Assembly (NCBI GenBank): GCA_016186485.1
Contig: JACPLN010000008.1
Coordinates: forward strand, 8,673 to 72,672
Source of the DNA: Candidatus Nealsonbacteria bacterium
Lineage (GTDB): Bacteria; Patescibacteriota; Minisyncoccia; Minisyncoccales; UBA6532
Reading direction: 5' to 3'
DNA length: 64,000 nucleotides
Shown here: positions 3,784-47,704 of the stretch, piece after piece
How positions within the stretch are numbered: position 1 is the first letter of the stretch
Layout: each line of letters starts with the position of its first letter
The notes under the pieces: model-generated
The model's input: the letters and a program-made list of their open reading frames with translations, nothing else
Told to the model about the DNA's origin: nothing
Databases searched by the model: none
Program-made: the position numbers and the translations under genes

Positions 3784-4194
3784 TTACTTTGCCTTTTTAG
3801 CGCCGTACTTTGACCTTTCTTGTTTTCTTCCTTCAACTCCTGCCGTATCCAGCATGCCCCTAACAACATGGTATCTTACCCCGGGCAAATCCTTTACTCT
3901 TCCGCCCCTGACCAAAACTATTGAGTGCTCCTGCAGATTGTGGCCCTCTCCCGGTATGTAAGCCGTAATTTCCATGCCATTGGTCAATCTGACCCTGGCT
4001 ACCTTTCTCAAGGCGGAATTGGGCTTTTTGGGGGTGGTGGTAAAAACTTTTAAGCATACTCCTCTTTTGAAAGGAGAAAAATAATCTTTAGGCCTGTCTT
4101 TTTTCGTATTAAAACCAAAAGTCAGGGCCTTAGCCTTAGGCTTCTTTTTTCCGGTCTTTCTTCCTTTTTTGATTAATTGATGGATAGTTGGCAT
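3784..4194 (-). CDS. rpsL: 30S ribosomal protein S12
   Basis: [13 protein letters not shown]...[19 protein letters not shown]...GVRYHVVRG, a canonical S12 sequence. Confidence 0.96.
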
Positions 4195-4195
4195 A

Positions 4196-4339
4196 CCCCG
4201 TAGTAGAAATTCGACAACGAGTTATAATTTCGCAAAAATTCATTGTCGTTTTTTATCGTAAATTAGATATATTTAGATAATGCCCCGGAGTCTATTTCTA
4301 TCATAACTCGTCAAGAAATGTCGAATTTTCACTACGGGG
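4196..4339. mobile_element. Hairpin MITE-like element, copy 1 (144 bp)
   Basis: Left end CCCCGTAGTAGAAATTCGACA, right end TGTCGAATTTTCACTACGGGG (inverted). A second inner inverted pair is ACGAGTTAT/ATAACTCGT. Flanked by the direct repeat CATA (4192-4195 and 4340-4343). Confidence 0.6.
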
Positions 4340-4372
4340 CATAAAAAACGAAAGCGCAGAGCGCTCATCATT

Positions 4373-4401
4373 AATTTAACAAATCGTAAAACCGGTGTCA
4401 A
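4373..4401 (-). promoter_or_regulatory. Putative sigma70-type promoter of the str operon (TTGACA-17-TAAATT)
   Basis: Minus-strand reading gives TTGACA (4396-4401), a 17-nt spacer, then TAAATT (4373-4378). It lies between MITE copies 1 and 2. Confidence 0.45.
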
Positions 4402-4402
4402 A

Positions 4403-4464
4403 CCCCGATAGTAGATTTTGGACTTACTCCGTAAAATGAAATTTGTCCAAAATTCACTACGGGG
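4403..4464. mobile_element. Hairpin MITE-like element, copy 2 (62 bp)
   Basis: CCCCGATAGTAGATTTTGGAC...GTCCAAAATTCACTACGGGG. Flanked by the direct repeat TCAAA (4398-4402 and 4465-4469). Confidence 0.6.
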
Positions 4465-4492
4465 TCAAACAAAAAAGGCATACAAAGATGCC

Positions 4493-5317
4493 TTATAGTA
4501 TTATGAACGGGATGGCAATGAGCGACACTACCAAAAATATGGTTACTAAGCTTGCAACGCCGGTTATTATATCTTTGGTTCTATATACGTTTACTATGTC
4601 CGACTTACCGTTATGTATCACATGATCGAGAACAAGTACCAGAATTAAGGCAAATGTATTGAATATTCTTCCTCCGTCTAGAGAACCAATAGGCAAAGCG
4701 TTAAATATGGCTAAGCTAAGATTGACAAGAATAATCACGAAAAACAGAGAAAATACTGCTTCATTTGCTCCCAGGAACGCCCGGTTTAAAAGAAGGCCGG
4801 GTATTGCGAGCAGGGCAACAACAAAGTTACTTACAATGCCCGCTGACGACACTTTAATTTGATCCTTAAATCCTTTCTCAATGAGCGAAAGTTCATCAAT
4901 CTCGCAGAAAGCTCCGATTGGAAATCCTAAAAACAACATTAGTCCCATTGATCGTACTCCGACCCCAACTGACCTTGCCGCCACGCCATGCGACAACTCA
5001 TGAACAGCTATGGCTATTATTATGGCTATCCAGCCAGAAAAAATCGGTAGGAAAGGATTCAGCCCGGGAATCAGCAACGATGACTGGACTCCCGCCTTTT
5101 TGACTTGCTCTAAAAGAACTGAATCAGAGAAAAAGCCGAAGATCTGGTAAATAATCAAGTACAGCCCTCCTATCATCAAAAGAGGGACAACTAACACCCA
5201 AAGCCAGTTTAAGGACCTAATAACCTTTATCCTACTCAGCCTTTCTATGAATCCCAACCCCCTTTTGGTTCTAATAAAAATCAGGGGAATCCTTAACTCA
5301 ACAGTCTTTTCTGTCAA
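4493..5317 (-). CDS. Site-2 protease family (M50) membrane metalloprotease
   Basis: Multi-TM protein with an HELSH zinc motif (AIAVHELSHGVAARS) and a distal LDGG motif. Confidence 0.8.
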   Translation of the reverse strand: MTEKTVELRIPLIFIRTKRGLGFIERLSRIKVIRSLNWLWVLVVPLLMIGGLYLIIYQIFGFFSDSVLLEQVKKAGVQSSLLIPGLNPFLPIFSGWIAIIIAIAVHELSHGVAARSVGVGVRSMGLMLFLGFPIGAFCEIDELSLIEKGFKDQIKVSSAGIVSNFVVALLAIPGLLLNRAFLGANEAVFSLFFVIILVNLSLAIFNALPIGSLDGGRIFNTFALILVLVLDHVIHNGKSDIVNVYRTKDIITGVASLVTIFLVVSLIAIPFIIL

Positions 5318-5409: not shown

Positions 5410-6048
5410 TCAAAAAATGGGCAGCTGTCCGGTTGTTAGGACGTAAAGAAACAAAGCGCCGAAAGAAACCAATTGGATTCCTCCCAAAAAAAAGATTAAA
5501 AAGATAAGAATGAAAAATCCGTACTGCGACATTATGACTTTCAATTTCCAAAACCTGTCCGGTAAAATAGAGAATAATAGATGGGAACCGTCTAGGGGCG
5601 GGATAGGAAGCAAATTAAACAAGGCTAAAAGAAAATTCATAATGACAATAATGCTGAAAAGGTAAAGCAAGGGAAGGGGCAAGGGAAGAAACCTTATCAA
5701 AAGCCCGAAGAAAACTGCCAGTAAGATATTGGAAAGAGGCCCCGCCAAAGCCACTTTTACGCTATCCCATCTTGGATTCTTAAAATTGTTTGGATTTATA
5801 GGAACCGGTTTTGCCCAGCCAAAAATTAAACCCTGCCCTGTTATGCTTGCAAAAAATACGAGCATAAGCGGAAAAATTACAGAACCAAAAAGATCTAAAT
5901 GGGCGATTGGATTTAAAGTAAGGCGGCCGGCGTATTTTGCGGTTTGGTCGCCCAGAGCCAAAGCAACCGTGCCGTGAGAAAGCTCGTGGATAATAACCGA
6001 AAACAGCAGAACTATTAAAGAAAATATGATAGTAATCTCTATTGGCAT
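5410..6048 (-). CDS. Site-2 protease family (M50) membrane metalloprotease, short form
   Basis: IIHELSHGTVALALGD...LNPIAHLD...PPLDGSHLL, an M50/SpoIVFB-like pattern. 212 aa, polytopic. Confidence 0.8.
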   Translation of the reverse strand: MPIEITIIFSLIVLLFSVIIHELSHGTVALALGDQTAKYAGRLTLNPIAHLDLFGSVIFPLMLVFFASITGQGLIFGWAKPVPINPNNFKNPRWDSVKVALAGPLSNILLAVFFGLLIRFLPLPLPLLYLFSIIVIMNFLLALFNLLPIPPLDGSHLLFSILPDRFWKLKVIMSQYGFFILIFLIFFLGGIQLVSFGALFLYVLTTGQLPIF

Positions 6049-6588: not shown

Positions 6589-7188
6589 CTAAAACATTAT
6601 ATCCTCTTCGGCTCTTTTGTAATCGTTTATTTCTTCTGGAGCAAACCAAAAATTAATTTCGTGCTCTGCTTCCTCCGGGGTTTCTGAAGCATGGACTATA
6701 TTGTGTATTCCCCTCTTATCTCTGTTCGCGGCAGTGGCGTCGTCAACGGAAAAATCGCCGCGTATAGTTCCCATTTCGGCGTCAGCCGGCATGGTAGCCC
6801 CGGCAATCTTCCTGACCATATTAACGGCATGAATTCCTCTTACCACCATTTTTACCAAAGGGCCTGAAGTCATATAATCCATTAGCCATCCCCTGACTAT
6901 CTTGCCTATTTCAAACGGATCTTCGCTCCCAAACTCTTTTTTGGGATCTGCGCCGTAGGTTTGGTAATTCTTTATGGTTTTTTGCCCAATTCTGGTAATC
7001 CAGGCCTCGTCCTTTGGATAGTGCTCATCAATCTGATCTTTTTTGGGCTGGAACATTTCCAAGGCAATAACTTTTAACCCCCGTCTTTCAAAACGGGAAA
7101 TAATTTCTCCAATCAAACCGCGCTTGACGCCGTCCGGCTTTATGAGAACGACTGTTTTTTCTTCTTTTGGATGTTGTGTTACGGCCAT
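6589..7188 (-). CDS. ndk: Nucleoside diphosphate kinase (long form with an internal insertion)
   Basis: TVVLIKPDGVKRGLIGEIISRFERRGLKV...GTIRGDF...NIVHASETPEEAEHEINFWF. NDK motifs include the catalytic His (VHAS). Confidence 0.88.
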   Translation of the reverse strand: MAVTQHPKEEKTVVLIKPDGVKRGLIGEIISRFERRGLKVIALEMFQPKKDQIDEHYPKDEAWITRIGQKTIKNYQTYGADPKKEFGSEDPFEIGKIVRGWLMDYMTSGPLVKMVVRGIHAVNMVRKIAGATMPADAEMGTIRGDFSVDDATAANRDKRGIHNIVHASETPEEAEHEINFWFAPEEINDYKRAEEDIMF

Positions 7189-16581: not shown

Positions 16582-17277
16582 ATGAGATCAAAGTGGTACG
16601 AATTAAGGGGTACTGCGATCGGGCTGCGCAAAAGGGGGCTTTCAATGAACACAATTGAAAAGCGGTATGGAATAGCTCGCTCCACCCTCAGTGGTTGGTT
16701 TAGAAACGTAAAACTTACGCCAGCACAAAAGAAAAAATTATCACAGAACTCAAACGCTGCGTTAATTTCGGCACGTAAAAGGGCGGTTTTGTGGCATAAC
16801 GCACAAAAACAACGAAGGCTCAGAGAGGCAAAACTGCAAGCACTCCATACATTAAGAAAAATCAATCCTAAAAACAGGCATATTCTTGAACTCACGTTGG
16901 CTATCCTCTATCTTGGTGAAGGAAATAAAGCAAGTGTCGAAACAAGTATTGGTAACTCCGATCCACTAATATTAAAGTTTTTCTTATCTTGTTTGAGAAA
17001 AATATATAATTTTAATGTCGATAAGATAAGGTGCGAATTACATTTGAGAGCTGATCAAGATCCTGAAAGAATAAAACGTTTCTGGGCTAAGAAACTTAAG
17101 CTATCGTTAAGTAATTTTAAACAAGTCACTATTGATAAAAGAACGCTCGGATCAAAAACTTTCGCCTATTATAAAGGGGTCTGCGTACTCAGGTGCGCTA
17201 ATGTAGCAATCCAAAGAAAGTTATTATATCTTGCACGTTATTTTTGTGAACAAATAATAAAATCGTCGGGCTCATAG
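16582..17277 (+). CDS. LAGLIDADG-type homing endonuclease-like protein with an N-terminal HTH
   Basis: A single motif, LTLAILYLGEGNK, matches the GLYLGDG variant of LAGLIDADG. The N-terminal GLSMNTIEKRYGIARSTLSGW looks like an HTH. The stop codon TAG lies inside tRNA-Val. Confidence 0.55.
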   Translation: MRSKWYELRGTAIGLRKRGLSMNTIEKRYGIARSTLSGWFRNVKLTPAQKKKLSQNSNAALISARKRAVLWHNAQKQRRLREAKLQALHTLRKINPKNRHILELTLAILYLGEGNKASVETSIGNSDPLILKFFLSCLRKIYNFNVDKIRCELHLRADQDPERIKRFWAKKLKLSLSNFKQVTIDKRTLGSKTFAYYKGVCVLRCANVAIQRKLLYLARYFCEQIIKSSGS

Positions 17278-18651: not shown

Positions 18652-20976
18652 TTATTTCACGATAATCTTTCCTTTCATGTTTGGATGGAAACCGCAAAAA
18701 TATTCATAGCTGCCCGTGGTTTTTGGAACAATCAATTCTGCGGTATCGTTTTCTTTGAGATCTCTCAAAGAAAGCTGTCCTCTAACGTTATGAAGGACGC
18801 TGTCATTGTTTTTAAAAATAACCTTGCCGCCCGCAGCTACCTCTACTACTGAGGGAGAAAAAGAAAAACCCTTAATTGAAACATTTACCGTAAAAGGAAT
18901 TTGCTCTATTTTAAGGCCGATGTCTTCAGAACCTTTTTCCGGAACAAACTGGCTTTTTTCAACAGCAGGCTGTTCTTTAGTTTCTGTTTCCGATCTTGGA
19001 ATTTCAATAGGTTTTGCTTCAACTGGTTTTAACTCAGCCGGTTTTACCTCTATTGATTTTTGCTCTGCTGGTTTCACGGCAGGCATGGGCACAGTTCTTA
19101 CTTCGGTTATACTAAGCGCCCGAAGAAGAATTTCCTTGGCGCCCCTTAATAGATTCAAAGCGGAAGTAGATTCTCCGAATGATTTGCCAAAATTGCCCTG
19201 CTCAAAAGCATCTTTTGCTCTTTGAATATGTTTGGCTGCTTCTTCAATCTTTTCATTGAATAACCTTTTGTATTTTAAGACCACCGCTTCGTCTGAAATC
19301 TTCTGGAATGTACCATCGGCTTCCTCTTTCAGGCTTTGAATATTTGTTTCTACGTTATCAATCCTTGCTTTTGCCTCTTCTTCTTTAATGTTCTTTTTAA
19401 GAACATTTTCGCTTCTAACCTCAACTTTTTCAATCAAATTGGGACGGAACTGTTCCACCGTAGAACGGTTACCGGGTTCCAGTCTGATTTTTTCTTCAAA
19501 AACTTTAAGCTTGCCGGGATCCTCAATGAATTCAATTTTTTGCTCAATGCGTTTTACCTGGTTAAACATCAGTTCTTGGGAAATCGGGGCTCCCAGCTTT
19601 TGCTGCATGCCTTTTATTACTCCGATATTGTCCGGGTTGTCGTCAACCAAGGCGCGAACCTTTTCTGCTCTTTCCCCCGAACTCCTGCTTCCCTGTATTT
19701 GTTCCTTAATACGATTGATTGACCCTTCTTTAAGGTCTTCTGCAATGTTTTGCTTATCTTCAGGGAGAGCTTCTTTTATATCTTCAAATACTTCCACCTG
19801 CTTCACATCTGCAAACCTTTCATTAGACTCCCTAACAAACTCTTTTACTTTATCTTGGGTATCAAGAAAGTCTATCTTGGTCCTGAACTTTCCGATTGCC
19901 TCCTGTTTTACTTCAAGAACCTTAGAAGACAAGGCGGGATCAAAATTGTCTTCAATGTCTTTTAACGCCCGCAAGCCTTCTACCGTTCCGTCGTTGATTG
20001 GGGAAAGAAACTCTTTTACAAGTTCAGGATTTTCATTTCTTGCTTCATTAAGCCTTTGCTCAAAACCATTAAGAAATTTTTCTTTGGCCTCATTAACATT
20101 TTTTTGAGCCTCTTCAGAAACAGGAACAAATTTCATGTGGTCAAATACTTTTACATACCGCACTTCGTCTCCGCCGATTCTTTGTACATAGTCGCCTAAA
20201 AGTTCTCTCTGCCCCTTTGGAAGCTGCTCAAATTTTTCTTTAAAGCGCTTTAAAGAATTTTCCTGCGCTTGGCGAATAGCATCTTTGGCTTGCTCTGGCA
20301 CCTTTTCTTCAACTGCCTTAAGCACCTCTAAATTTCTAAGGGGTTTGAAAGAGCTTCCTTCGTCGGACAATGCCGTCGCAACAACTTCTTTTATCTTTTC
20401 CTGGTCTTTAACGTTTTCTATAACGCCTCCGAGATGTTCAATGGTTTTTCCCCTTGTCTCTTTAATTCCGGCGATAACTCCCAAGGGAGCTTCTTTCTCA
20501 AAGTTTCCCAAAAGCACTTGATGCTTTAATTGGTCGCCCAAAGACTTCTCTGAAAACTTCTCAACAAATTCGGGGTTTTTATCTTTAAGGTTTTCGGCTA
20601 TTTTATTTGCTCCCTCAACGTCCTTTTCGTAATTCTTTAGGTGCTTTTCCAAGACCTTAAAATTCCCTTTCTCCGCCAGTTTTTGGGCTTCAATAATTTT
20701 TTCATTGGCAAACTGCAATTTTAACTCCGCTTTCCTTTCCTGATTAAACGTAAGGGCCGACCTCACTCCCCGAAAAGTGTTTTTAAAGAAATAAAACGGG
20801 CTATCCGGCAAAATGCCCGAATCCCCGACGCCCAAATCTCCTGCTAAAACCGCCTCGTCCTGAGCAACAAGTGCATTAACGTTTGAGGCCGGCAAAACTT
20901 CCTCTTGGGCGTTTGCAAGAAAGGCCAGGCCGGCAAATAAAAATATAATAAACGATATAGTAATTATTTTGTTCAT
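18652..20976 (-). CDS. Secreted long helical protein (DUF5667-like N-region) fused to a C-terminal type-1 copper cupredoxin domain
   Basis: Signal peptide MNKIITISFIIFLFAGLAFLANA. The LPDSPFYFFK motif is recalled as DUF5667-type (unverified). The C-terminus reads VIFKNNDSVLHNV...YEYFCGFHPNMKGKIIV (H...C..H..M ligand pattern). Start trimmed to 20976 because the upstream 24 codons read through MITE copy 3. Confidence 0.75.
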   Translation of the reverse strand: MNKIITISFIIFLFAGLAFLANAQEEVLPASNVNALVAQDEAVLAGDLGVGDSGILPDSPFYFFKNTFRGVRSALTFNQERKAELKLQFANEKIIEAQKLAEKGNFKVLEKHLKNYEKDVEGANKIAENLKDKNPEFVEKFSEKSLGDQLKHQVLLGNFEKEAPLGVIAGIKETRGKTIEHLGGVIENVKDQEKIKEVVATALSDEGSSFKPLRNLEVLKAVEEKVPEQAKDAIRQAQENSLKRFKEKFEQLPKGQRELLGDYVQRIGGDEVRYVKVFDHMKFVPVSEEAQKNVNEAKEKFLNGFEQRLNEARNENPELVKEFLSPINDGTVEGLRALKDIEDNFDPALSSKVLEVKQEAIGKFRTKIDFLDTQDKVKEFVRESNERFADVKQVEVFEDIKEALPEDKQNIAEDLKEGSINRIKEQIQGSRSSGERAEKVRALVDDNPDNIGVIKGMQQKLGAPISQELMFNQVKRIEQKIEFIEDPGKLKVFEEKIRLEPGNRSTVEQFRPNLIEKVEVRSENVLKKNIKEEEAKARIDNVETNIQSLKEEADGTFQKISDEAVVLKYKRLFNEKIEEAAKHIQRAKDAFEQGNFGKSFGESTSALNLLRGAKEILLRALSITEVRTVPMPAVKPAEQKSIEVKPAELKPVEAKPIEIPRSETETKEQPAVEKSQFVPEKGSEDIGLKIEQIPFTVNVSIKGFSFSPSVVEVAAGGKVIFKNNDSVLHNVRGQLSLRDLKENDTAELIVPKTTGSYEYFCGFHPNMKGKIIVK

Positions 20977-21026: not shown

Positions 21027-21086
21027 CCCCGTAGTAGAAATTAGACAATCTGCGATTATGAAATAAGTCTAATTTCTACTACGGGG
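21027..21086. mobile_element. Hairpin MITE-like element, copy 3 (60 bp)
   Basis: CCCCGTAGTAGAAATTAGAC...GTCTAATTTCTACTACGGGG. Flanked by the direct repeat CACA (21023-21026 and 21087-21090). Confidence 0.6.
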
Positions 21087-26392: not shown

Positions 26393-27597
26393 AAAAGGAT
26401 TTTCCGGTTTTTAAAAACCACCCCAAACTGGTTTACCTTGATTCTGCGGCTACTTCTTTAAAGCCAAGGGGTGTAATTGTGAAATTAGTGGAATATTACG
26501 AGAAATACCCGGCTAACGTTTTCAGGGGAATCTACAAAATTTCAGAAAAGGCGACCGAAGAGCTTGAAGAAACAAGAAAAATCGTTGCTGATTTTATAGG
26601 AGCTAAAACGCCGAAAGAAGTAATTTTTACCCGCAACACCACCGAATCAATCAACCTGGTCAGTTACGCATTGGGAGAAAAAATATTAAGAAAGGGCGAT
26701 GAAGTCGCTCTTTCAATAGCGGAACACCACTCTAACTTTGTGCCCTGGCAGCAGCTAGCTAAGAAAAACGGAGCTGTTTTTAAAATAATAGATGTAAACG
26801 AAGACGGAAAACTGATTATCAAAAAAGGTTTCTTTTCAAGAAAAACAAAAATTCTGGCCCTAACTTATGTTTCAAATGTTTTGGGAACGATAAATCCAAT
26901 AAAGGAAATAATAAAGCTGGCGAAATCAGAAAACCCTGGGATAATAACCGTTATTGACGCCGCCCAAGCCATCCCCCATCTTAAAATAGACGTTAAAAAA
27001 CTGGGAGCCGACTTCCTGGCTTTTTCTTCCCATAAAATGCTGGGCCCGACAGGCCTGGGAATTTTGTGGGGAAAAGAAAAAATCTTGCAGGAGATGAAAC
27101 CATTCAATTTCGGCGGAGAAATGGTAGAAGAGGTTTCAATCAAAAAAACTACGTTTAAAGAGCCCCCTCTCAAGTTTGAAGCCGGCACGCCGGATATTGC
27201 GGGAATAATCGCTTTGAAAGAAGCAATAAGATACCTTTCAAAAATTGGTTTCAAGAATATAAGAAGACACGAAATTGAAATTACAAGATACGCCATGGAA
27301 CGGATGCTCAAAGAATTCGGAGAAAGAATAAAGATCTTCGGGCCAAAAGACCCGCGAGATCGGGGCGGAATAATATCTTTTGCGCTTTCGGGCCTGCATC
27401 CTCATGACGTTGCCCAAATTTTAGACGAAAAAAACATATGCGTCAGAGCGGGGCACCACTGCGCCATTCCCCTTCATAAAAGATTAGGGGTTCCTGCCAC
27501 AACCAGGGCCAGCTTTTACATTTACAACGACAAGAAAGATATAGATAAATTAATTTTAGGGCTGAAGAAAGCATGGATTCTATTTACAAAGAAATAA
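26371..27597 (+). CDS. sufS: Cysteine desulfurase SufS
   Basis: YLDSAATS, the PLP-Lys region FSSHKMLGPTG, and the active-site RAGHHCA. Confidence 0.9.
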   Translation: MFSVNKIKKDFPVFKNHPKLVYLDSAATSLKPRGVIVKLVEYYEKYPANVFRGIYKISEKATEELEETRKIVADFIGAKTPKEVIFTRNTTESINLVSYALGEKILRKGDEVALSIAEHHSNFVPWQQLAKKNGAVFKIIDVNEDGKLIIKKGFFSRKTKILALTYVSNVLGTINPIKEIIKLAKSENPGIITVIDAAQAIPHLKIDVKKLGADFLAFSSHKMLGPTGLGILWGKEKILQEMKPFNFGGEMVEEVSIKKTTFKEPPLKFEAGTPDIAGIIALKEAIRYLSKIGFKNIRRHEIEITRYAMERMLKEFGERIKIFGPKDPRDRGGIISFALSGLHPHDVAQILDEKNICVRAGHHCAIPLHKRLGVPATTRASFYIYNDKKDIDKLILGLKKAWILFTKK

Positions 27598-27941
27598 TTC
27601 TTGAATACTATAAAAACCCGAAGAATTATGGCAGAATAAAAAAACCGACCAGTAGCGCCTTTCTCGCAAACCCCCTTTGCGGAGACAAAATAAGAATTGA
27701 TGTTATTTTGAAAAAAGGAAAGGTAAGAGAAATTAAGTTTTCCGGGGATGGCTGCGCGATTTCTCAGGCTTCGGCTTCCTTGCTCACGGAATACAGCAAG
27801 CAAAAAAAAGCGACTATTCTTAAGAAAATCGGCCCCAAAAAGGTTTTGCAAATGCTTGGGATAAAAATCGGCCCCGCAAGGCTAAAATGCGCTCTTTTAC
27901 CCTTGGAGGTTTTTAAAAAAGCAATTAGCAAAACCCCGTAG
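27573..27941 (+). CDS. sufU: SufU/IscU-like Fe-S scaffold or sulfur acceptor
   Basis: NPLCGDKIRIDV...FSGDGCAISQASASLL...RLKCALLP, a three-Cys SufU pattern. The last two codons and stop lie inside MITE copy 4. Confidence 0.85.
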   Translation: MDSIYKEIILEYYKNPKNYGRIKKPTSSAFLANPLCGDKIRIDVILKKGKVREIKFSGDGCAISQASASLLTEYSKQKKATILKKIGPKKVLQMLGIKIGPARLKCALLPLEVFKKAISKTP

Positions 27942-28011
27942 TGAATTTTTGACTTATTTCACAATATTAGTTTTTCTTTTAAGAAAAACTTGTCGAAAAT
28001 CTACTACGGGG
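27934..28011. mobile_element. Hairpin MITE-like element, copy 4 (78 bp)
   Basis: CCCCGTAGTGAATTTTTGAC...GTCGAAAATCTACTACGGGG. Flanked by AAA(A) on the left and AAA(G) on the right. Confidence 0.55.
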
Positions 28012-28044
28012 AAAGGTCGTAAAAAAATAAATAAATTTTTATTC

Positions 28045-30833: not shown

Positions 30834-31589
30834 TTATTTAGCCAGCCACCCTCCGTCAATGTAGAAAGTGGCGCCGGTAATATAGCTGGCTTCTTTTGAA
30901 GCCAAAAAAACGACCAGGGCCGAAACCTCTTCTGGTTTTCCAATACGCTGCAATGGAACCCTCAAACGAATCTCTTCTTTCAACTCTTCGCTGACCGGCC
31001 CTATCATCGGCGTTTCAATCGCGCCAGGAGATACTGCGTTAACCGTAATCCCCAAAGGCGCTAATTCTACGGCAAGAGTTTCTGTCATGCCGATAATTCC
31101 TCCTTTTGAGGCAGAATAATGGGCCGCTCCCTCAAAACCGATGCCTGTTCCCCCCGAAGCGATTGAAGAAATATTTATAATCCTTCCCCATTTGTTTTTT
31201 GCCATTTCTTTGGCTGCAATTTGGGCGCAAAGAAACTCTCCCCTTAGATTGATATTGATCGTTCTGTCCCATTCTTCCTCAGTTATGTCTAAAGCAGATT
31301 TTGGAGAAAAAATACCGGCGTTATTTACCAAAATATCAAGGCTGCTAAAGCGCTTTATTGTCTCTTTAATTACATTTTCTATTTCGGATTTTTGGGAAAC
31401 ATCCATTTTAAAAGAAACCGCTTCACCCCCTTTCTTTTTAATCTCGTCTGCAACTTGCCGGCACTCTTTTTCGTTAATATCGGTTACGGCTACTTTTGCG
31501 CCGCTTTGGGCAAGCAAAATAGAATGGGATTTTCCCATACCCCGTCCTGCCCCGGTTACTAAAGCAACCTTGCCCTTAAGGTCAAACAT
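30834..31589 (-). CDS. SDR-family oxidoreductase (FabG-like)
   Basis: TGAGRGMG cofactor motif, NNAG, and the YSASK catalytic motif. Confidence 0.9.
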   Translation of the reverse strand: MFDLKGKVALVTGAGRGMGKSHSILLAQSGAKVAVTDINEKECRQVADEIKKKGGEAVSFKMDVSQKSEIENVIKETIKRFSSLDILVNNAGIFSPKSALDITEEEWDRTININLRGEFLCAQIAAKEMAKNKWGRIINISSIASGGTGIGFEGAAHYSASKGGIIGMTETLAVELAPLGITVNAVSPGAIETPMIGPVSEELKEEIRLRVPLQRIGKPEEVSALVVFLASKEASYITGATFYIDGGWLAK

Positions 31590-47632: not shown

Positions 47633-47704
47633 AAATCCTCTCGGGTTAATTACTAATTATTTTTGGATATCGACCTTTCCCTTATTTTATTTTATCAAAA
47701 TAAT

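Follow-up and report, generated by a model that had tools for sequence, protein, structure and literature searches.

How can the gene of a heavily expressed ribosomal protein keep working when two hairpin-forming DNA elements lie in its control region, one of them 1 nt from its start codon? This question is raised by rpsL, the gene of ribosomal protein S12, in a 64-kb stretch of the Candidatus Nealsonbacteria contig JACPLN010000008.1 (64,000 nucleotides, here called the window), from a bacterium of the candidate phyla radiation (CPR, or Patescibacteria). The reading that we favour, at a probability of roughly 60%, is that the two elements, E1 and E2, are miniature inverted-repeat transposable elements, or MITEs, of one family, that the ancestral promoter and the S12 frame have been left intact, that the mRNA carries the hairpin while translation is rescued, and that the elements are selfish and tolerated. 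The family itself is apparently undescribed, with a strong selectivity for the edges of -35 boxes and for start codons, those of ribosomal protein genes included.

Two elements of one family in the rpsL control region

The minus-strand gene order is M50-peptidase gene (4493-5317), rpsL, rpsG and fusA. Between the first two genes, the minus strand reads, in order, terminator hairpin, TTTGA, E2, TTTGA/TTGACA, 17-nt spacer, TAAATT, GC hairpin with a U-run, TATG, E1 and TATG-CCA, where rpsL begins. The features of this interval, which include the target-site duplications (TSDs) of both elements and a short upstream open reading frame (uORF), are as follows.

3784-4194, minus: rpsL coding sequence, ribosomal protein S12 (Pfam PF00164, E 2.9e-38), start ATG at 4192-4194
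4192-4195, minus: proximal TATG TSD, by direct reading, containing the rpsL start codon; the inverted-repeat pair I1 extends across it
4196-4339, minus: element E1, a 144-nt MITE of the long type, GTGAA end 5' in the mRNA sense
4319-4339 and 4196-4216, minus: 21-nt arms of E1, CCCCGTAGTGAAAATTCGACA / TGTCGAATTTCTACTACGGGG, from inverted-repeat analysis
4280-4291, minus: internal arm-like remnant ACTCCGGGGCAT within E1, able to pair with the 5' arm (inverted-repeat pair I9)
4301-4342, minus: 13-codon uORF MPRSENSTFLDEL plus stop, running through the E1 5' arm; ATG at 4340-4342, stop at 4301-4303
4340-4343, minus: distal TATG duplication, by direct reading, carrying the duplicated ATG in its native upstream context
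4352-4366, minus: ancestral leader hairpin GAGCGC-TCT-GCGCTT followed by a U-run, directly 3' of the predicted transcription start site (TSS); terminator-like in the scan
4373-4401, minus: ancestral rpsL promoter, TTGACA (4396-4401), 17-nt spacer and TG-extended TAAATT (4373-4378)
4398-4402, minus: proximal TTTGA duplication of E2, overlapping the first four bases of the -35 hexamer
4403-4464, minus: element E2, a 62-nt MITE of the short type; a covariance-model match (50.7 bits, E 8e-10) confirms its boundaries
4465-4469, minus: distal TTTGA duplication of E2, by direct reading
4475-4494, minus: intrinsic-terminator-like hairpin at the end of the upstream M50-peptidase gene, predicted as terminator-like

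A first-pass annotation of this DNA had described a copy ending 1 nt from the rpsL ATG with a duplicated TATG, a distal ATG opening the 13-codon uORF, and a second copy whose repeat overlaps the -35 hexamer. Each of these observations held at the positions listed above, and only the boundary of the second copy had to be corrected, to 4403-4464. The arms of E1 are 88% complementary, and the promoter-side end of E2 is slightly degenerate (CCCCGATAG, with a 1-nt insertion). A 21-mer from the element terminus had 4 matches in the window against 0 in 100 shuffles.

The N-terminus of S12 (MPTIHQL) agrees with homologues. The protein is 100% identical to a Ca. Nealsonbacteria S12 and about 88% identical to the next nearest S12 proteins; a close relative of the window genome is absent among the GTDB representatives, where S12 identity reaches 75% at best. 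The same S12 gene, with an identical 236-nt upstream sequence, is present in three independently assembled Logan contigs, and since the arrangement is the same in three separately assembled runs, an assembly artefact is ruled out.

The rpsL promoter and leader in relatives without the elements

The TTGACA-17-TAAATT site between the two copies (4401-4373), also recognised at first pass, was the sole promoter-like site directed at rpsL to pass the promoter scan. We compared the rpsL upstream region with that of relatives, as far as they could be found among the fetched loci (L numbers), and ten other rpsL lineages with M50-rpsL-rpsG-fusA synteny have spacers of 27-128 nt without E1 and E2 (L084, L085, L086-88, L209-218, L220, L223, L226, L232). 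Nearly all of the relatives share a promoter of the form TTGACA/TTGACT-17-TAAATT with TGT preceding the -10 box, the window type being seen in L085, L086, L209, L219, L220, L223 and L226. The leader hairpin after the TSS is likewise kept, with compensatory changes, in L086-88, L209 and L226. The window stem, GAGCGC/GCGCTT, corresponds to TGAGCGC/GCGCTCA in L086 (about 540-560) and to GAGCAC/GTGCTT in L209 (about 455-470), and AAGCGC/GCGCTT was also found. This conserved GC hairpin with its U-run could be an attenuator of the str operon or a 5' stabiliser.

When E1 with one TATG and E2 with one TTTGA were removed in silico, an M50-rpsL spacer of 83 nt and a leader of about 25 nt remained. This is the promoter and leader architecture of the ten element-free lineages, so that the compact promoter reconstructed at first pass by the same deletion is correct. 

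One relative has acquired an element of its own at this site. In L219, another Nealsonbacteria-type contig, a 100-nt element with CCCC...GGGG ends (324-423) sits exactly on the rpsL -35 box with a TTGA duplication. Its arms are CCCCMCACCACTTTAT, given as CCCCCCACCACTTTAT / ATAAAGTGGTGTGGGG. The element is of another type than E2, and it represents an independent occupation of the site used by E2; this suggests a superfamily of CCCC...GGGG elements with a common target preference. A different rearrangement at the rpsL start of a relative is seen in L084, where a diverged copy of the rpsL 5' end (ATGTGTCCAACAATTCATCAATTA) lies at about 1760-1845, some 75 nt upstream of the real start (ATGCCCACTATTCAT), and is followed by a TATAAT box. 

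Upstream of rpsL, two neighbouring open reading frames (ORFs) of the window (4493-5317 and 5410-6048) match Peptidase_M50, the first best over profile positions 4-100 and the second over 160-220, whereas relatives have one M50 gene of about 205 amino acids there. The two adjacent ORFs could be a duplication or a split gene.

The element family in metagenomes

Groundwater and sediment metagenome assemblies were scanned with the terminus pattern CCCCGTAGTRRAWWTTNGAC only. At least 120 stretches matched, from which 117 unique elements with flanks were extracted. The elements share termini CCCCGTAGT...ACTACGGGG with near-invariant tips CCCCGTAGT(G/A)(A/G)A, inverted arms of 20-21 nt, interior mini-hairpins and TSDs of 4-5 bp, and they contain no transposase ORF. 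Their lengths span 42-213 nt, most being 60-85 nt, with a second class at about 125-155 nt. A 4-bp direct duplication flanks 81/117 elements and a TSD of 3, 5 or 6 bp a further 18, the main classes being CTTG/CAAG (18), TTGA/TCAA (~20), TATG/CATA (~17) and TTTA/TAAA (~14). One GTGAA end and one GTAGA end were found in 104/117.

In an alignment of 35 short copies, which includes the window copy E4 described below, the outer 12 bp are near-invariant, fixed G.U and A.C oppositions included, and both the outer stem, in its inner half, and the small interior hairpin show compensatory changes; the loop of that hairpin is often UUCG, UACG or CUUG in one orientation. The interiors of the long elements are heterogeneous, with 42-68% identity to E1 when the shared arms are counted; the closest relative of E1, L172, is 68% identical, arms included. 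The arm-like remnant ACTCCGGGGCAT hints at a composite origin of E1, and long elements with such an internal tip plus CAT(A) flank may owe their origin to flanking DNA that was captured between two ends. Motifs of the form GGGGCAT(A/T)A, similar to the E1 remnant at 4280-4291, also lie inside L118 and L198. 

Elements nested in elements occur in L102 (3199-3299), L119 (1583-1687), L140 (4128-4238), L155 (20-121), L194 (4591-4706), L205 (4915-5049) and L134 (151-349), in two cases with a CGGG duplication within the arm-proximal interior, which indicates repeated and fairly recent transposition. The carriers that could be anchored taxonomically are only Nealsonbacteria-type CPR genomes, most carrier contigs being without assignment. 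At the gathering threshold of Rfam the window yields only tRNAs, and relaxing the cut-off to E <= 10 adds nothing but generic long-hairpin miRNA models, at about 20 bits against the 140 needed. A search of the accessible literature found no prior description of this element family or of MITEs in CPR/Patescibacteria.

Landing sites at -35 boxes and start codons

The rpsL arrangement is a textbook example of how this family lands and not a remodelling peculiar to this locus. The junction falls exactly on a TTGAC(A) hexamer in 33/117 elements (28%), compared with 2.8% of random non-coding positions in the same contigs; an example reads CTTG, element, CTTGACAA. These hexamers belong to real promoters, as a -10-like box follows at 16-19 nt after 31 of the 34 that adjoin elements, against 13% of all such hexamers. 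At the other kind of site, the ATG of the TSD opens an ORF of at least 50 codons in 20/117 elements (17%), against 1.6% at random, and both kinds are therefore used about ten times above chance. The enrichment persists when it is conditioned on the duplicated tetranucleotide, with 14/18 against 19% for CTTG (p ~1e-7), 17/21 against 48% for TTGA (p ~0.002) and 13/15 against 33% for TATG (p ~3e-5). The flanks are mostly independent loci, forming 30 clusters from 34 in the -35 class and 19 from 20 in the ATG class.

Besides S12, the ATG class comprises genes for L10 (twice), S20 (twice), L28, SecG, TsaD, ScpB, RecO, YifB and an RpoD-like factor, which are largely essential; with L10, S20 and L28 among them, the start-codon arrangement is compatible with high expression. 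Upstream of the distal ATG, a -10 box is usually found at a leaderless distance. Orientation in this class is biased 16 to 3, and a 70-73-nt subfamily (cluster 17) lies at (T/C)ATG in 8/9 copies, in a single orientation. The L28 gene provides an orthologous pair of empty and filled sites: TAGAAT-N8-TATG in L209, and TATG, 73-nt element, TATG in L219. Flanks of the form TATGCCAA in L138 and L198 were considered as further rpsL sites, and the genes proved to be those of S20 and an RpoD-like factor.

Further copies in the window

With E1 and E2, the 64-kb window holds 4 copies of the family.

21027-21086, strand not assigned: element E3, 60 nt, with a CACA duplication, between the start of a DUF5667/cupredoxin gene and a tRNA gene
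27934-28011, plus: element E4, 78 nt, with an AAA (AAA(A/G)) duplication, upstream of a Ni-SOD gene (covariance-model match 86.5 bits)

The arm of E4 supplies the TAG stop (27939-27941) of a NifU-like gene (27573-27941). If the duplication is the 3-bp AAA, the ORF would ancestrally have ended in ...SKRS-TAA at about 28020-28022, and on this reconstruction the insertion of E4 replaced the last codons and the stop. 

The flank TAAAGGTCG (window 28012-28019) adjoins at least 9 elements, in one orientation only and with a TSD of TAAA or AAA. In the window it also occurs at 47678 and 34015 (minus), with no overall enrichment, and elsewhere in loci L095, L121, L130, L163, L185, L193, L194 and L196. 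Further occurrences lie in 5' regions, with 15-45 nt separating the motif from the ATG, and downstream of promoters (L103, L123, L191).

Initiation without a Shine-Dalgarno sequence

The first-pass annotation had noted that no Shine-Dalgarno (SD) sequence is visible at the proximal ATG, which is true, but its absence is not an effect of the insertion, because an SD core lies within 20 nt of the ATG in only 2/63 window genes, compared with 9% of random 17-mers, and the rpsL leaders of element-free relatives likewise have none. In many window genes (for example 6589-7188, 16582-17277, 30834-31589 and 18652-20976) a TATAAT-like box precedes the ATG by 5-9 nt, suggesting that leaderless or near-leaderless mRNAs are widespread in this genome. 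Our literature search for leaderless translation in CPR bacteria returned nothing.

Predicted structure and translation of the rpsL leader

E2 landed at the upstream edge of the -35 hexamer and E1 at the start codon, and each duplication regenerates the functional motif beside the gene, the -35 box in one case and the ATG in the other, thereby leaving TTGACA-17-TAAATT and the S12 reading frame intact. Among the alternatives offered at first pass, the best fit is that the insertions are tolerated since both the ATG and the -35 box were preserved by the duplications. Transcription would still begin at the ancestral promoter, near 4366, and since no promoter internal to E1 passes the scan, the mRNA is predicted to include the E1 hairpin, which would bury the S12 AUG.

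The stable stem that the first-pass annotation saw abutting the rpsL start is borne out by folding. The leader of the mRNA predicted from about 4366 folds at -58 to -59 kcal/mol (-58.4; z = -5.4), with E1 forming a hairpin of about -59 kcal/mol in our model, and the two UAUG copies are predicted to pair with each other at the foot of the stem. The modelled accessibility of the start region, as the probability P(unpaired), is as follows.

Present leader, A and U of the S12 AUG with the 12 nt preceding it: no base above 0.07
Present leader, averaged over -12 to +13: 0.35
Reconstructed ancestral leader, mean: 0.46
With a ribosome footprint imposed on the distal AUG, mean: 0.50
With a ribosome stationed at the uORF stop, mean: 0.35
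3' fragments after cleavage at any point of the 3' arm, mean: 0.52-0.77

In the model, then, ribosomes at the distal AUG or cleavage in the 3' arm would each restore the ancestral accessibility, and both routes of rescue are plausible. Along the former, ribosomes would initiate at the duplicated upstream AUG, with its native SD-less context, translate the uORF through the 5' arm and melt the stem; along the latter, RNase III would cut the 20-bp stem, as in Correia elements, to leave a short unstructured leader. Either route or both might operate. RNase III cleaves Correia elements at their terminal inverted repeats (TIRs), as two papers describe (PMC10969869; PMC2649163). An in-frame N-terminal extension of the protein from the duplicated ATG was rejected, as 17/20 uORFs of the ATG class stop inside the element; the remaining three (L131, L138, L169) stop shortly past it, in a frame differing from that of the gene.

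The uORF overlaps the strand that sequesters the S12 AUG, and occupancy of its start raises the modelled mean to the value given above. This geometry resembles ermC-type control, translational coupling and standby systems, in which a short uORF lies over one strand of a helix burying a downstream AUG. It differs from them in that the uORF start would be an accidental, transposon-duplicated copy of the gene's own start codon, and in that no regulatory ligand or stalling signal is evident at rpsL, the effect being a modelled one.

Kind of element and possible mobiliser

By their anatomy the elements are MITEs: they are small, dispersed in many copies and devoid of a transposase ORF, their TIRs are 20-21 nt long, their TSDs are of fixed length and variable sequence (TATG, TTTGA, CACA and AAA in the window), and orthologous sites exist in empty and filled form, as in the L28 pair (L209/L219) and the ten rpsL spacers. 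They share with Correia elements (CREE) the form of small, non-autonomous TIR hairpins (about 100-150 bp) that often lie beside genes and are co-transcribed. Correia elements duplicate TA and create -35 and -10 boxes at their ends. In the present family the duplications are of 4-5 bp (CTTG, TTGA, TATG, TAAA), the termini (CCCCGTAGT...) are unrelated and no promoter is supplied; moreover, Correia elements belong to Neisseria, whereas this family resides in a CPR bacterium and lands on the -35 edge and the start codon. Correia stems are substrates of RNase III, and the elements affect promoters and mRNA stability, according to the same two papers (PMC10969869; PMC2649163).

The 4-bp duplications and CCC-type ends make a DDE transposase of piggyBac/IS1380-like type the most plausible mobiliser, by analogy. 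PiggyBac elements have CCC-type TIR ends and 4-bp TSDs that include TAAA, TCAA and TATG variants, and IS1380 transposases are used as their prokaryotic outgroup (PMC10813416). The 4-bp duplication and the CC(C) start of the TIRs are present here too, as a resemblance only, and the canonical piggyBac target, TTAA, is unlike the TSDs of this family. 

Several candidates for an autonomous parent were discarded. In the fetched loci, F and R ends that lie 0.26-4 kb from each other seem to be paired by chance; a 1.1-kb candidate in L101 has no transposase-sized ORF, the adjoining ORF carrying an LLGDGS motif, which we take to mark a LAGLIDADG-type homing endonuclease; the candidate interval in L151 holds three ordinary-sized ORFs; and the candidates on viral contigs were one duplicate locus and one chance match.

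Alternative explanations

The first-pass annotation had also proposed translational or RNA-stability control at rpsL, and the elements might indeed have been exapted as cis-regulatory modules, selected for control of str-operon translation, mRNA stability or promoter strength, with E1 perhaps gating translation and E2 perhaps serving as an insulator or in the manner of an UP element. Recurrence at essential, highly expressed genes, the 16 to 3 orientation in the ATG class, the fidelity of cluster 17 to (T/C)ATG (8/9 copies), the compensatory changes that preserve the outer stem and small interior hairpin, and the independent occupation of the rpsL -35 box in two genomes would all suit this idea. 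We nevertheless consider it unlikely: 0/10 other rpsL lineages carry equivalents of E1 or E2, only L219 having an element and that of a different kind, the end of E2 is degenerate, the interiors of the long elements are heterogeneous (42-68% identity to E1), and covariation in the arms is also expected from recognition by a common transposase. As the elements are not conserved at rpsL in relatives and E2 has decayed at one end, a dedicated role there is unsupported, and most likely they are selfish and tolerated rather than a dedicated rpsL regulator. It is more improbable still that E1 supplies an outward promoter, so that the rpsL mRNA would start in or after it and never contain the hairpin. 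Correia and other MITEs do create promoters, as one paper reports (PMC2649163), and ACGACA-17-TATAAC, on the minus strand close to the end of E1 that faces rpsL (about 4226-4254), is a weak candidate. This candidate was rejected, since it lacks T at the last -10 position and fails the scan, and the long elements have no promoter position in common, while the 70-73-nt start-codon subfamily is too short for a promoter.

Two readings of the elements themselves seem to us least probable of all. REP sequences have a conserved GTAG head, and GTAG near the tip of each arm, long imperfect hairpins with the fixed G.U and A.C mismatches in 35/35 aligned copies, the structurally conserved interior hairpins, the extragenic location and the many copies per genome could make the family one of repetitive extragenic palindromes (REPs) or REPINs moved by a RAYT (Y1 HUH) transposase, or of PATEs of IS200/IS605 type, rather than of TIR/DDE MITEs. 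The duplications are nonetheless clean and variable in sequence, 4 bp in 81/117 copies and 3-5 bp in more, and REPINs and IS200/IS605 derivatives are not known to make any of the kind; the 20-nt arms, furthermore, are not themselves palindromic REPs. Hardly more credible is a structured RNA gene, or an RNA with a ribozyme-like three-way junction that would process itself off the 5' ends of mRNAs. A three-helix architecture with compensatory changes, a first interior loop of UUCG, UACG or CUUG in one orientation and tolerance flush against the AUG of essential genes are compatible with it, but no Rfam family matches even at E <= 10, the interior can flip relative to the ends (cluster 8), about 28% of the copies lie upstream of promoters and would not be transcribed with the gene, and the duplications and nested insertions point to DNA transposition.

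For the reading of two tolerated MITEs with an intact promoter and a rescued message, several points have to be set on the other side. The uORF stop is separated from the S12 AUG by 107 nt, too great a distance for simple termination-reinitiation, and a ribosome modelled at that stop leaves the stem closed, so that only ribosomes early in the uORF help. The rpsL TSS, the processing and the translation of the uORF are predictions, and the 64-kb window showed no RNase III signature, a result that carries no information on the genome as a whole. Neither an empty-site allele from this very population nor, among the approximately 130 fetched loci and the viral contigs, an autonomous parent with matching termini was found. 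As to the landing sites, a strong orientation is shared by the TAAA class (11 to 0), the orientation bias of the ATG class could come from the insertion mechanism, and the enrichment could come from purifying selection in very compact genomes as well as from transposase targeting. A stronger version, according to which this CPR family is actively targeted to the upstream edge of the -35 box and to the transcription-start or start-codon position of leaderless-type genes, with the hairpin routinely neutralised by RNase III or by translation from the duplicated AUG, strikes us as doubtful.

Implications

What is new here lies in a MITE family with site selectivity and not in a special control device at rpsL. 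Its members show mobile DNA persisting in the tiny, gene-dense genomes of CPR/Patescibacteria by settling exactly at the borders of promoter elements and start codons, the 4-bp duplication making good the damage. For annotation, such elements account for 5' spacers of unusual length, for spurious ATGs upstream of genes and for altered stops, such as the one supplied by E4. They also raise a question about translation, since in the heavily expressed genes of S12, L10 and S20 the AUG lies flush against a 20-bp stem with no SD. Were the family actively targeted and its hairpin routinely neutralised, it would be able to spread into the control regions of genes that are essential and highly expressed (S12, L10, S20, L28, SecG and a sigma factor) in genomes with hardly any spare DNA. 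It would then parallel, in bacteria, the promoter-targeted transposons of eukaryotes, and would offer a natural test of initiation without an SD beside strong structure.

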